Shown piece by piece: positions 2,400 through 58,847 of a stretch of DNA of 64,000 bases; positions within the stretch are counted from its first letter, which is position 1; each line of letters opens with the position of its first letter. The notes under the pieces are model-generated. The model had not been told where the DNA came from and made no database searches. It saw only the letters and a list, made by a program, of their open reading frames with translations. Source of the stretch: Burkholderiales bacterium (GTDB taxonomy: Bacteria; Pseudomonadota; Gammaproteobacteria; Burkholderiales; Casimicrobiaceae); assembly GCA_031260355.1 (NCBI GenBank), contig JAIRJZ010000042.1, forward strand, positions 2,855-66,854, in the 5' to 3' direction. The position numbers and the translations under genes were made by a program.

Positions 2400-3980
2400 A
2401 TGTCAAAACACACCTTCTTCCGAAGGCGGCAGCAGGCATCGCGGCACGGTTTTTCCGATTCTTCTTACATACGGCGGGTTGTTTTCCGCTTTTGCCGCAA
2501 TCTGCTGTTGTTGCCTGTGTTGGCGCTTCTGGCCTGCGACCACCCGCCGACACCGCCGTCTTCCCTCTTTTCGGCTGAAGCTCAAGCCGCCCTGCCCCGA
2601 GACGCCCCGGCGTTTTCGGTGTTGACGGTCGCGTTCTGTTCCGACCCGGCAAGCTGGTTCATCAGCGGCAACGGCGAATTCGCCGGTTTCGAATACGACT
2701 TGCTGGATAAATTCGCGCAGGAAGTGCGGTTGACGCTCCGCCCCACCGCCGTCAAAAACGGCACCGAACTGCGAACCTCTCTCAAAAAGTCCCGAGCCAG
2801 CCTCAGCACCGGCCTCTACCGGTCTGGCCCGGACAGTGATGACGGGATTGTCTGGACCGACAGCTTCTATACCACCGAGCCGGTCATCGTTTACAACACC
2901 GACATCCGCCGCCCCAAAGGCTGGGAACAGATTACCGGCGATGCCGTCGCCTATCTCGAAAATTCGGGCATGGAGTCGTTGATCGCGGAACTGTCGGAGG
3001 CACACCCCGGCATCCGCTGGAAACCGGTGGCGGCGCCTTCCACCGACGCGCTGTTGTCGCAAGTCGATGACGGCACCTACCCCTATGCGCTGGTCACGTC
3101 GCACAAAGCCGTGCTCGCCCGCAATATTTATCTGAACTTCGCGACGGCGTTCTCGACCGGCGCCCGCATCGAACTGGCCTGGGCACTGCCGGCGAACAAA
3201 CATTACCTGCTCGACGCCCTGAATTCTTTCATCGCCCACGCCAAGGAAAGCGGCCTGATCGACCGGCTCGCCGAGCGCTATTTCCATCCTTCCGGAAAGA
3301 TGCAACGGATCGACGCCGGCGTCTTCCAGGAACGTATCCGCAACGACTTGCCGCAACTGCGTCCGTTGTTCCACCGCGCTCAGGAAACAACCGGGGTGGA
3401 ATGGCGTTTGCTGGCGGCAGTCGCCTATCAGGAATCGCAATGGGATCCCCTCGCCACCAGCGAGACCGGCGTACGCGGTTTCATGCAGATTACCGGGGAC
3501 ACGGCGCGCTTTCTCGGCGTCAAAAACCGGCTCGATCCGAATGAAAGCATCCAGGCCGCCGCCGGTTATCTGAGAGACCTCAAAGGCCGCTTGCCGGACA
3601 ACATTGCCGAGCCTGACCGTACCTGGATGGCGCTCGCTTCCTACAACATCGGCCTCGGCCATCTCGAAGACGCCCGCCGGCTGGCACGCGAGCAGGGTCT
3701 CAACCCGCTGTTGTGGAAAGACATCAAGCAGACGCTGCCGTTGCTGGCACAGCCGGAGTATTACAGCCGCGCCCGCTACGGCTACGCGCGCGGCGGCATG
3801 CCGGTCGCCTTTGTCGATCGGGTTCGCGCTTACTACGACATTCTGCTGTGGCATGAACCGACGCACGACCTCTTGCGGCTGCATGCCGCCGACGGTGGCA
3901 ACGTTCGCGCGCTTCGAGGCGATACCATGGCAGCGCTTTCAACAAAGCCGCGATTGAAGCAAGAAGAACGGTTGATATAA
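2400..3980 (+). CDS. mltF: Membrane-bound lytic murein transglycosylase F (SBP_bac_3 + SLT domains)
   Basis: Lipobox-like LALLAC. The C-terminal SLT region reads EWRLLAAVAYQESQWDPLATSETGVRGFMQIT. The exact start is uncertain. Confidence 0.88.
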   Translation: MSKHTFFRRRQQASRHGFSDSSYIRRVVFRFCRNLLLLPVLALLACDHPPTPPSSLFSAEAQAALPRDAPAFSVLTVAFCSDPASWFISGNGEFAGFEYDLLDKFAQEVRLTLRPTAVKNGTELRTSLKKSRASLSTGLYRSGPDSDDGIVWTDSFYTTEPVIVYNTDIRRPKGWEQITGDAVAYLENSGMESLIAELSEAHPGIRWKPVAAPSTDALLSQVDDGTYPYALVTSHKAVLARNIYLNFATAFSTGARIELAWALPANKHYLLDALNSFIAHAKESGLIDRLAERYFHPSGKMQRIDAGVFQERIRNDLPQLRPLFHRAQETTGVEWRLLAAVAYQESQWDPLATSETGVRGFMQITGDTARFLGVKNRLDPNESIQAAAGYLRDLKGRLPDNIAEPDRTWMALASYNIGLGHLEDARRLAREQGLNPLLWKDIKQTLPLLAQPEYYSRARYGYARGGMPVAFVDRVRAYYDILLWHEPTHDLLRLHAADGGNVRALRGDTMAALSTKPRLKQEERLI

Positions 3981-3988
3981 AAGAAACC

Positions 3989-4016
3989 GTCATTCCGGCG
4001 AAAGCCGGAATCCAGG
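3989..4016 (+). repeat. REP-type palindromic unit R1 (gtcattccggcgaaagccggaatccagg)
   Basis: Perfect hairpin ccggc-gaaa-gccgg with GTCATT/AATCC flanks. The same unit occurs at 4512..4539, inverted at 4402..4430, and as a variant at 48522..48548. Confidence 0.85.
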
Positions 4017-4075
4017 CATATCCAGGACATGTTTCGTCGAAGCGCATAACTTGATATACCTTGTGCTTGAGGCTT

Positions 4076-4378
4076 ATGTCGAGACAACCTTGTGTTTATC
4101 TTCTTGCCAGCGAACGTAATGGAGCGCTATACATCGGCGTCACCTCCAATCTGCTTCAGCGTGTCTGGCAACACAAAGAAGATGTCGTCGAAGGGTTTAC
4201 GCGACGCTACGGTGTGAAAGCACTGGTATGGTACGAGCTGCATGAAACGATGGATTCCGCCATCGCTCGTGAGAAGGCGCTCAAATCATGGAAGAGGTCT
4301 TGGAAATTGCAGTTGATTGAAAACACGAATCCGACATGGGCGGATTTATATCCTTCTTTGCTTGCAGAGCGTCCTTGA
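4076..4378 (+). CDS. Small stand-alone GIY-YIG nuclease family protein (UPF0213/YhbQ-like)
   Basis: MSRQPCVYLLASERNGALYIGVTSNLLQRVWQHK... carries the GIY (VYLL..) and YIG (LYIGVT) motifs. A GAGG sits 4 nt upstream of the ATG. The gene is AT-richer than its neighbours. Confidence 0.85.
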   Translation: MSRQPCVYLLASERNGALYIGVTSNLLQRVWQHKEDVVEGFTRRYGVKALVWYELHETMDSAIAREKALKSWKRSWKLQLIENTNPTWADLYPSLLAERP

Positions 4379-4401
4379 AACTCAAGGAAAAGCTCACGCC
4401 T

Positions 4402-4430
4402 CCTGGATTCCGCCTTTCGCCGGAATGACG
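4402..4430 (-). repeat. REP unit R1, inverted orientation (1 stem mismatch)
   Basis: cctggattccgcctttcgccggaatgacg is the reverse complement of R1. Confidence 0.8.
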
Positions 4431-4511
4431 CGGTTTTTTTACTGCTTTTCTTAATAGCAACAAGGGGCTTTTCTCGACGGCTGGCGTTGTCTAGTGTGCC
4501 GCCATTTCTCC

Positions 4512-4539
4512 GTCATTCCGGCGAAAGCCGGAATCCAGG
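4512..4539 (+). repeat. REP unit R1
   Basis: gtcattccggcgaaagccggaatccagg, identical to 3989..4016. Confidence 0.85.
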
Positions 4540-4592
4540 TTTTTTTCCGAGGGCTTCGTTGCCGCGCTATGTACGACTCGCCAGAAACGGCT

Positions 4593-5327
4593 CTAGTGAA
4601 CGAGAATCTTGTCCAGAAATTGCTGGGCGCGTTCGCTGCGCGGTTTCTTGAAAAAATCTTCTTTCGTTGCGTCCTCGACGATCACTCCGTGGTCCATGAA
4701 CAGCACCCGTCGCGCCACTTTCTGCGCAAACCCCATTTCATGGGTGACCACCATCATGGTCATTCCCTCTTGCGCCAACTGCACCATCACGTCGAGCACT
4801 TCGCGGATCATTTCCGGGTCGAGCGCCGAAGTCGGTTCATCGAACAACATGCAGATCGGATCCATCGACAACGCCCGCGCGATGGCCACCCGCTGCTGCT
4901 GACCGCCGGAAAGCTGGCCGGGAAATTTGTCCTTGTGCAACAGCAAACCAACGCGCTCCAGGTACTGCATTCCTTTCGCCTCCGCCTCGTCGCGCGACCG
5001 CCCCAAAACCTTGACCTGCGCCAGCGTCAGATTGTTGCGTACCGACAAATGCGGAAACAACTCAAAATGCTGGAACACCATTCCCACCTGTGCTCGCAAT
5101 TTCGGCAGATTGGTTTTTGACGACGTCAGTGAAATATTGTTGACCAGTATCTCGCCTTTCTGGATCGGCTCCAGCCCGTTCACCGTTTTGATCAGCGTCG
5201 ATTTACCGCATCCCGACGGGCCGCAAATCACCACCACTTCACCTTTATCGACACGGGTCGTACAATCCTTCAGTGCCTGAAAGTTTCCGTACCATTTCGA
5301 AACGTTTTGAATGTCGATCATCGGCAT
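4593..5327 (-). CDS. gltL: Polar amino-acid (glutamate/aspartate-type) ABC transporter ATP-binding protein
   Basis: [22 protein letters not shown]..., Walker [10 protein letters not shown], signature [13 protein letters not shown]. The start could also be 5321. Confidence 0.9.
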
Positions 5328-5346
5328 TTTCTTTTCCCTTCCATCT

Positions 5347-6108
5347 CTAACGGACGATGGCAATGTTTCGCTGCAAACGGCGCACGCCAAACGAAAGCAT
5401 CAGACAAATCACAAAATACACCAGCGCCGCAAAAAGATACATTTCCACCAGCCGCCCGTCGCGTTGCGCCACTTTTGATGCCGCTCCCAGGAAATCGGTG
5501 ATCGACAACACATAAACCAGCGACGTGTCCTGAAACAGAATGATCGTTTGCGTCAGCAGCACCGGCAACATGTTGCGAAACGCCTGCGGCAAAATCACGT
5601 AGAACATCGACTGCCAGTAGTTCAGTCCCAACGCGTAACTGGCGCCTTCCTGTCCGCGCGACACCGACAAAATACCGGAGCGCATGATTTCACAGTAATA
5701 CGCCGCCTGAAACAGCGTGAAGGTGGCGACCGTCGAAGCGAAAGCGCCGATATGCAACGGCTGGCCGTCTCTGACCTGATAGCCGAAAATGTTGACCAGC
5801 ACTTCTCCGACCGGACGCGGCAGTACCTGATACAACTCGTGCAGCAGATAACCGCCCACATACGGCATCAGGAAGTAGCACCAGAAAATCACCAGCAGCA
5901 ACGGAATGGCGCGCGTCAGATTGACATACATTCCTGCTGGTATCGAGAAAATACGATACTTCGAAAGCCGCATCATCGCCAGCAGCGTGCCCAGAATGAT
6001 CCCGCCGGTCATGGCGCACACCGTCAGCTTCAGCGTAAACACCATCCCGTCGCGGAACAGATACGGCAACGAGCGCTCGATAACATTAAAGTCGAAATCG
6101 GCAAACAT
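5347..6108 (-). CDS. gltK: Amino-acid ABC transporter permease
   Basis: [29 protein letters not shown] parallels the GltK N-terminus. Polytopic membrane protein. An alternative GTG at 6120 overlaps the gltJ stop. Confidence 0.85.
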
Positions 6109-9649: not shown

Positions 9650-9668
9650 GGGAGGCAATCTGCCTCCC
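9649..9668. repeat. Short hairpin unit (ggggaggcaatctgcctccc)
   Basis: Overlaps the nnr stop. A near copy, ggggaggcaacctgcctacc, lies at 9897..9916. Confidence 0.6.
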
Positions 9669-9705
9669 GTCATTCTGCGCAAAGCGAAGCGGAGTCGCAG
9701 AATCC
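9669..9705 (+). repeat. REP-type unit R2 (gtcattctgcgc-aagcgaagcg-gagtcgcagaatcc)
   Basis: Stem ctgcg/cgcag with GTCATT/AATCC flanks. Copies lie at 27077..27113 (inverted) and inside the MITE-like elements at 39844 and 58727. Confidence 0.8.
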
Positions 9706-26937: not shown

Positions 26938-27113
26938 CTCTCCCCTTGAGGGAAGAGACGCGGCATTGCGAGAAGCAAAGCGACGAAGCAATCCAGATTT
27001 TCCCCTTCCCCTTCAAGGGGAAGGTTGGGATGGGGATGAGGTTTCATGGTTAGGCTCTATCTCGATTGATTCGGGCGGATTCTGCGACTCCGCTTCGCTG
27101 CGCGCAGAATGAC
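26938..27113. repeat. Stack of four different palindromic units in the ridA-recG spacer
   Basis: The four units are: hairpin ctctccccttgagggaagag (26938..26957); R3 (26959..26996); inverted unit B (27001..27041); inverted R2 (27077..27113). Confidence 0.8.
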
Positions 27114-27210
27114 GACGTTCCCACCCCCTCTACCTCAAGGGAAAATGGAGAAAAAGCGCGATACCGCTTTGTCCGCCTTCTCACAGAAATGCTCACAGAA
27201 ACGTATTCAC

Positions 27211-39843: not shown

Positions 39844-39964
39844 CTCTGAACAACCTTGCTATCCCCCGCTTGTCATCCTGCGCGAAGTCGCAGGATCCAC
39901 GCGGCGTCTGGATTCTGCGACTTCGCTTCGCTACGCGCAGAATGACAGGAAGGGGTTTTCAGAG
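39844..39964 (+). mobile_element. 121-bp MITE-like element with terminal inverted repeats (ctctgaacaac...ggttttcagag) enclosing two REP hairpins
   Basis: A second copy lies in opposite orientation at 58727..58847, roughly 85-90% identical by eye. It has no coding capacity. Confidence 0.7.
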
Positions 39965-58726: not shown

Positions 58727-58847
58727 CTCTGAATAACCCTCCTGTCATTCTGCGCGTAGCGAAGCGAAGTCGCAGAATCCATGCAGTGTGTGGATCCTGC
58801 GACTTCGCGCAGGATGACAAAGCGGGGGAATGCGGAGTTATTCAGAG
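58727..58847 (-). mobile_element. 121-bp MITE-like element, second copy (inverted relative to 39844..39964)
   Basis: ctctgaataac...gttattcagag termini, with the same two internal REP hairpins. Confidence 0.7.

Follow-up and report, generated by a model that had tools for sequence, protein, structure and literature searches.

A GIY-YIG nuclease of the Ssn family and its flanking hairpin repeats in the small genome of an uncultured Burkholderiales bacterium

We analysed a 64,000-nucleotide stretch of DNA from an uncultured Burkholderiales bacterium (family Casimicrobiaceae; assembly GCA_031260355.1, contig JAIRJZ010000042.1, positions 2,855 to 66,854), hereafter the window, in which a small gene for a stand-alone GIY-YIG nuclease lies between inverted copies of a dispersed hairpin repeat. 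The encoded protein, P0001, belongs to the Ssn family; its gene (ssn) has the SRM hairpin motif of that family on both flanks, the motif is enriched across the genome, and ssn and the motif co-occur in related genomes. By analogy with characterised homologues, we put at about 0.87 the probability that the locus consists of an Ssn single-stranded DNA (ssDNA) nuclease with its cognate SRM hairpins and that the enzyme cuts as its homologues do. Such a system was already published in 2025 (Chenal et al. 2025, Nat Commun 16:2388, PMC11893778), and the locus is an ordinary further instance of it. A first-pass annotation of the window had proposed that the protein is linked to the GTCATT...AATCC repeat family, through cleavage or otherwise, and a link through cleavage is what the likeness to SsnA and the fit to the SRM pattern described below point to.

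P0001 carries the GIY-YIG domain (Pfam PF01541) over residues 5-78 (E 2.8e-17) and no second domain. SsnA of Neisseria meningitidis is a single-domain GIY-YIG protein of 94 amino acids (aa; CDD cd10448; PMC11893778). Neisseria genomes for comparison were picked by their DNA-uptake-sequence pattern, and a Pfam GIY-YIG search found a 94-aa gene amid NTS units in both N. gonorrhoeae DSM 9188 and N. viridiae. With the gonococcal protein (NZ_QNRU01000007.1, locus L155) as SsnA reference in place of N. meningitidis CAX49033.1, we found that P0001 is 63% identical to this NTS-flanked orthologue over 93/94 residues (E 2e-46). Chenal et al. delimit the family by a length below 150 aa and a blastp E value below 1e-10 at a cover of at least 75% to Neisseria SsnA; against the gonococcal orthologue, P0001 falls within the size, single-domain and blastp limits. 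An alignment of 16 sequences (P0001, two Neisseriaceae SsnA and 13 homologues) showed Y8, Y19, R29, H33, E66 and N85 to be invariant, and the GIY-YIG catalytic set of two tyrosines, arginine, histidine, metal-binding glutamate and asparagine is complete in P0001. A PDB sequence search with P0001 gave no match, and NCBIfam gave spurious sub-threshold matches only and no specific model.

The assignment of P0001 to the UPF0213/YhbQ proteins was also considered and rejected, as its 29% identity to Neisseria YhbQ-like open reading frames (ORFs) was not significant (E 0.06-0.27). A tblastn search of N. polysaccharea, N. lactamica and N. weixii with P0001 recovered only YhbQ-like ORFs without SRM flanks, and ssnA was absent from these three genomes.

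The repeat around the gene, which we refer to as R1, has the form CGTC-ATTCCGGC-GAAA-GCCGGAAT-CCA, that is, an unpaired tag, an 8-bp stem starting with AT, a four-nucleotide loop and a CCA tail. In the upstream unit the tag occupies 3988-3991 and the stem 3992-3999 and 4004-4011, closed by the GAAA loop and followed by the tail CCAGG. Folding as ssDNA gave the 8-bp stem with its GAAA loop for each perfect copy (z -3.8 and -4.0), the former being the upstream unit, at -9 kcal/mol. The first-pass annotation had described a (+) unit, the GIY-YIG coding sequence, a (-) unit and a further (+) unit, and this layout and its coordinates hold when the units are taken in full (Table 1); the repeat was rightly placed, although a start at 3989 had left out the C of the CGTC tag. 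The first two units form a tag-outward pair around ssn, with gaps of 59 bp before the coding sequence and 23 bp after it. The SRM pattern of Chenal et al., HGTCWYN0-2YYVSBRHN0-5WNVSBRGN0-2RNCYNB, has to occur at least once within 500 bp of an ssn gene on each of its two sides, 5' and 3'. We found that all three units fit it, with matches at 3988-4015 (+), 61 bp upstream, at 4403-4430 (-), 25 bp downstream, and at 4511-4538 (+), so that both sides of the gene are occupied. By its tag, stem and tail, R1 is a CGTC-1 type palindrome, of the class to which the Neisseria dRS3/NTS repeats belong.

The association is not a product of chance. An R1 25-mer with up to three mismatches had four matches in the window and none in 100 shuffles, and the SRM pattern had 80 matches across the genome, whereas ten first-order Markov controls averaged 9.4. 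Approximately 61 R1-type units are present in the genome (2.1 Mb in 88 contigs), and nowhere except at the ssn locus do three of them fall within 600 bp. The bracket of hairpins around ssn is thus real. A looser scan for a tag plus hairpin found 241 CGTC- or TGTC-tagged hairpins with a CC or CT tail, forming two main families. In R1, the stems ATTCCGGC and ATTCCCGC are represented by 28 units each. The second family, R2, has a long stem (ATTCTGCG.../ATCCTGCG...) and, with about 92 units, outnumbers every other tagged repeat in the genome; about 40 nearly identical R2 dimers of 77 bp are REPIN-like, each joining a long and a short unit (a heterodimer) tag-outward across a 15-bp spacer.

The two downstream R1 units also belong to a composite repeat, in which two tag-inward units enclose a conserved spacer of 73-100 bp (TTTTCTCAATAGCAAC...TTTCTCCGTCATTCC). 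Without the gene, this composite has at least six further copies in the genome. Those at 70-77% identity lie at C19:7006-7143, C20:32356-32510, C1:172726-172861, C13:165-295 and C64:61038-61182, and the aligned copies at C13:171-291, C20:32360-32507, C28:39632-39759, C58:32523-32647 and C64:61042-61178.

We then compared the locus with those of related genomes. Homologues of P0001 are patchily distributed, occurring in 21 of 61 relatives. R1 was present in all 16 relatives with a strong ssn match and in 11 of the 44 without one (Fisher p = 8.7e-8; Mann-Whitney p = 2.5e-7; 60 relatives, phylogeny ignored). Thus, the presence of ssn tracks that of R1, a co-occurrence that the first-pass annotation had proposed to look for. 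The strict bracket, (+) unit, gene, (-) unit, was found at 12 of 22 homologue loci, namely both in the present genome and 10 of 20 in relatives, and at these loci the nearest units lie 2-66 bp from the gene. Both flanks carry a common stem variant, which differs between paralogues; in G023, three variants surround three gene copies.

These observations can be read against what is known of characterised Ssn proteins. SsnA binds NTS (CGTCATTCCCGCGMAVGCGGGAATCYRG) solely as ssDNA and cuts a few nucleotides upstream of it, while it is inactive on double-stranded DNA, RNA or the reverse strand (PMC11893778). The Ssn proteins of N. meningitidis, N. elongata, N. wadsworthii and Wolbachia all recognise the NTS/SRM hairpins beside their genes in ssDNA form and cleave just upstream of them, and an SRM is found near 71% of Ssn homologues and on both sides of 42% (PMC11893778). 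The cleavage chemistry and specificity of P0001 would be those of its homologues, as judged by the 63% identity to the gonococcal orthologue. P0001 would therefore be expected to bind the R1 hairpin when the strand CGTCATTCC...GGAATCCA is single-stranded, as might occur in transforming DNA that enters the cell, at a replication fork or in an intermediate of repair, and to nick a few nucleotides 5' of the CGTC tag; duplex DNA, RNA and the complementary strand would be left uncut. As the bracket is tag-outward, cleavage is predicted to occur close outside the cassette, at about 3980-3987 in the top strand and immediately to the right of 4430 in the bottom strand. A top strand in single-stranded form, if cut 5' of both 3988 and 4511, would free a gene-bearing piece of 523 nucleotides. 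The biological role of the system is probably a modulation of recombination with hairpin-bearing ssDNA.

Several points weigh against this reading. Specificity varies among the Ssn homologues that have been tested. ComEC is encoded in the genome but is widespread, and natural competence is thus little supported. Two congeners that are 96-97% complete, G002 and G004, contain 40 and 57 R1 units and encode only UvrC-type GIY-YIG proteins, so that the repeats evidently persist without the enzyme. Finally, at four Neisseriaceae loci the nearest units are reversed, in the order (-) unit, gene, (+) unit. Three of these are tag-inward Neisseria loci (L155, L156 and L158), with loci L015-L026 serving for comparison; at the fourth, in Uruburuella (L157), hairpins lie only upstream, as a (+)(-) pair whose (-) unit is the closer one. 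The family thus keeps no fixed geometry of cleavage with respect to the gene, and the predicted cuts would fall inside the cassette in the tag-inward arrangement and outside it in the tag-outward one.

Table 1. Features at the ssn locus and related repeats elsewhere in the window (positions in the window)
Feature	Position	Strand	Remarks
ssn gene (P0001)	4076..4378	+	100-aa single-domain GIY-YIG nuclease; ATG 4076, stop 4376-4378
Putative ribosome-binding site GAGG	4069..4072	+	Read from sequence; 3 nt 5' of ATG 4076
Upstream SRM (CGTC-1 type REP, R1) CGTCATTCCGGCGAAAGCCGGAATCCAGG	3988..4016	+	8 nt past the stop codon of the MltF-like gene
Downstream inverted SRM	4402..4430	-	One stem mismatch, GCCGG to GGCGG
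Third SRM, perfect copy	4511..4539	+	Same orientation as the gene; T-run 4540-4546 after the hairpin
Composite repeat, ~130 bp: SRM(-), 80-bp spacer, SRM(+)	4402..4539	.	Sequence alignment
MltF-like lytic transglycosylase gene (SBP_bac_3 + SLT)	2400..3980	+	Left boundary of the insert; synteny
ABC transporter ATPase gene	4593..5390	-	Right boundary of the insert; last gene of its operon
R2 dimers	39871-39947; 58743-58819		
R2 single units	9668-9703; 27079-27114		

The ssn gene stands between an MltF-like gene and an opposite-strand ABC operon of the polar amino-acid type (ATPase, two permeases and binding protein), as had been noted in the first pass. Its low G+C content, pointed out there as well, was confirmed at 49.2%, compared with 61.0% for the MltF-like gene, 54.1% for the ATPase gene and 58.1% for the window. 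The two neighbours are separated by 612 bp here (3981-4592) and by only about 55 bp without an SRM in the sister species G002 (L005). In other congeners, the same spacer holds a truncated DUF559 endonuclease-like gene (G008, L006), a SUKH-1/SMI1-KNR4 gene (G009, L007) or an R2 hairpin pair with an ORF resembling that of an insertion sequence (IS) (G004, L009), while in G005 and G007 synteny at this point is broken. Because congeners hold other inserts or none, the spacer is a hot spot for insertion, with the ssn unit as an accessory insert. In the comparison of species at this spacer, neither a base-precise empty site nor a target-site duplication could be defined, as the MltF C terminus and the spacer differ too strongly from one species to another. 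No resident SRM was found in the G002 spacer, which gives no support to insertion next to one.

A second ssn gene is present on contig C21 of the same genome (G000:C21:11047-11334, within L159:693-1072, that is, G000:C21:10992-11371). It is 49% identical to P0001 and is a probable pseudogene because a TAA (L159:838-840) replaces the conserved tryptophan codon 31. Like the first copy, it is bracketed by inverted units, in this case long-stem CGTC units (CGTCATTCTGCGCGGAGCGAAGCGACGTCGCAGAATCCA), and its frame runs on into the downstream hairpin; the first-pass annotation had suggested scoring paralogues for inverted R1 flanks, and this one has inverted hairpin units of a different family. This dead copy is the only ssn associated with the R2 family. 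A recurrent recoding site behind flagged internal stops was considered and discarded after five loci had been rechecked: three have a natural stop at about residue 95, one has no stop, and an internal stop was found in the C21 copy alone. In the relative G003, two ssn copies (L015, G003:C109, and L029, G003:C50) have about 690 bp in common, with genes about 93% identical. The common segment extends about 250 bp past the bracket and has the same stretch of about 65 bp (GATCGCGCG..GCGCGATGAATGTTGG followed by an SRM(-)) at both ends, which points to the recent duplication of a unit that exceeds the SRM bracket. The C50 copy has decayed, with the glycine of YIG changed to aspartate and a frameshift, and its alignment stops at residue 70.

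Together, these data suggest that the ssn locus behaves as an accessory, horizontally moving cassette. A further step, which would add to the identification as an Ssn nuclease with its hairpins, is that SRM(+)-ssn-SRM(-) forms an autonomous mobile or homing cassette, with Ssn spreading SRM dimers and itself in the manner of a REP-associated tyrosine transposase (RAYT; REP, repetitive extragenic palindrome). We regard this as a tentative and rather unlikely proposal, although several observations are consistent with it. The patchy distribution of ssn is accompanied by a best identity within the genus of 66%, compared with 70-79% for metagenome proteins of other, unrelated lineages, and the low G+C content of the gene and the short spacer of G002 are also compatible with the proposal. 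The arrangement of the repeats is also suggestive. Tag-outward (+)(-) pairs number 55 in the genome and tag-inward pairs 11. All but four of the tag-outward pairs have spacers of 11-34 bp. The remaining four measure about 100 bp (two pairs), 308 bp and 395 bp, and the only two longer than 101 bp are those that enclose ssn genes: the 395-bp pair holds the ssn gene of the window between R1 flanks and the 308-bp pair the C21 paralogue between long R2 units. Both ssn copies thus occupy the spacer position of tag-outward dimers, the 53 others being uniformly short-spaced, and the flanks of each copy match each other and differ between the paralogues. Decayed copies (the C21 gene with its TAA at codon 31, and L029 of G003) and the recent intragenomic duplicate of G003 fit the same picture. 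CGTC REPs, unlike GTAG REPs, have never been found with a transposase gene (Di Nocera et al. 2013, BMC Genomics 14:522, PMC3733652), leaving them without a transposase of their own. Chenal et al. likened the NTS-ssnA-NTS architecture to an insertion sequence and themselves raised the idea that Ssn drives the spread of the repeats or of itself (PMC11893778).

Other findings speak against such mobility. Neither a duplication of the target site nor a base-precise empty site could be delimited, and the duplicated segment of G003 reaches about 250 bp beyond the bracket. To our knowledge, GIY-YIG enzymes catalyse cleavage but no strand-transfer chemistry. Each ssn cassette has the same unit on both sides (a homodimer), in contrast to the heterodimeric short dimers, which can therefore not derive from the cassettes by simple deletion. 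The 40-57 R1 units of G002 and G004 occur without ssn, the only ssn partner of R2, the hairpin family with the most units, is dead, and the orientation of the units is reversed in Neisseriaceae. In its most explicit form, SRM(+)-ssn-SRM(-) would be the autonomous counterpart of the REPIN-like CGTC dimers, with ssDNA cleavage by Ssn driving their copying by a homing or peel-and-paste-like route; this we consider doubtful.

It is a good deal less probable that the hairpins act mainly in cis on the ssn transcript, as terminators or stabilisers, and are not substrates of the enzyme. The hairpin at 4511-4539 with its T-run looks like an intrinsic terminator, as the segment 4515-4534 together with the T-run scores as terminator-like, and so does a short stem directly after 4402-4430. 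A terminator role may therefore exist alongside the role as substrate. However, such a role does not apply to the upstream unit, hundreds of identical units are found at a distance from ssn, and cleavage at these hairpins has been proven for homologues (PMC11893778).

Mobilisation of R1 by the RAYT (Y1) transposases of the genome, with the GIY-YIG gene a bystander, is very improbable. A profile search agreed with the first-pass annotation that the window contains no RAYT. Elsewhere in the genome, we found Y1_Tnp (PF01797) matches on contigs C79 (two copies) and C1 and a weak one on C48. The C79 and C1 genes (L001, G000:C79:1454-1981; L002, G000:C79:2589-3149; L003, G000:C1:25544-26080) are RAYT-like, and each lies between inverted GTAG-tagged REPs (GGTAGGTTGGGATGAGC... 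and GTAGGGTGGGCAAAGGC...) unrelated in sequence to R1; the weak C48 match has no REP flanks. None of the four matches has an R1 unit within 400 bp, so that the hallmark of a RAYT/REPIN system, a Y1 HUH transposase flanked by REPs of the same family, is missing for R1, and no CGTC REP family has been tied to a transposase (PMC3733652). Thus, although RAYTs exist outside the window, as the first pass had wished to know, they go with repeats other than R1, and a GTAG/RAYT and a CGTC/Ssn system coexist in one 2.1-Mb genome. Last, the notion that REP-type hairpins merely gathered in permissive intergenic DNA around an unrelated YhbQ/UPF0213-like housekeeping paralogue, to which the variable MltF-ABC spacer with its other inserts (G008, G009, G004) and the gene-free composite repeats might lend some colour, is scarcely credible and effectively refuted by the unique three-unit cluster within 600 bp, the second paralogue with its own hairpin family, the recurrence of the same bracket in relatives, the co-occurrence of ssn and R1 across them, and the identity of P0001 to SsnA (63%, compared with 29% to a Neisseria YhbQ-like protein).

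The locus is therefore confirmatory: it places the pairing of Ssn and SRM in a small uncultured genome and brings no new kind of biology. It also bears on whether Ssn propagates CGTC repeats, or itself, as RAYTs do REPINs. A clean natural data set for this is provided by the two ssn paralogues (one of them dead), each with its own hairpin family, by congeners that bear the repeats without ssn, and by the empty site of G002. If copying driven by Ssn were true, the transposase-less superfamily of CGTC REPs would gain its missing mobilising enzyme; it would fit both the finding that, of the 55 tag-outward pairs, only the two wide ones hold ssn genes and the pairing of the R2 dimers with a dead ssn.

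Among known systems, the closest is Ssn/NTS, with which the locus shares a single-domain GIY-YIG protein of about 95-100 aa, oriented CGTC-tagged hairpins within 65 bp on both sides, genome-wide enrichment of the motif, and co-occurrence of ssn and motif across genomes; the order SRM(+)-ssn-SRM(-) corresponds to the published NTS-ssnA-NTS architecture. It differs in a compensatory C-to-G change in the stem (ATTCCGGC compared with ATTCCCGC) and in its flanks, which are tag-outward here and at 10 of 20 loci of relatives and tag-inward at the four Neisseriaceae loci. The host is also a small-genome uncultured bacterium and not a Neisseria. The repeats themselves resemble the CGTC-1 REPs, a family that includes dRS3 of Neisseria and RPE-6 of Rickettsia (PMC3733652), in the CGTC tag, the 8-bp stem starting with AT, the four-nucleotide loop and the CCA tail, as well as in occurring mostly as inverted dimers, preferably heterodimers, without a transposase. 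Di Nocera et al. 2013 described no partner protein for these REPs (PMC3733652), whereas the partner here is ssn, as in Chenal et al. 2025.

More distant likenesses are found in three other systems. UPF0213/YhbQ proteins are similar to P0001 in size and fold, but P0001 lacks their GKGAKYTR segment, and the Neisseria YhbQ-like genes have no SRM flanks. Homing endonucleases of the I-TevI type share the GIY-YIG core and the character of a small, patchily distributed, selfish-looking gene; in contrast to them, ssn has no DNA-binding domain and no intron or intein, and its predicted target is an ssDNA hairpin instead of a long duplex. RAYT/REPIN systems, reportedly described by Nunvar in 2010, Bertels and Rainey in 2011 and Ton-Hoang in 2012, likewise have a single-copy nuclease gene between inverted copies of a dispersed hairpin repeat, and in both cases short inverted dimers, REPIN-like here, far outnumber the gene-bearing unit. 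The present system departs from them in its enzyme, which is of the GIY-YIG and not the HUH/Y1 type, and in its CGTC instead of GTAG tag.

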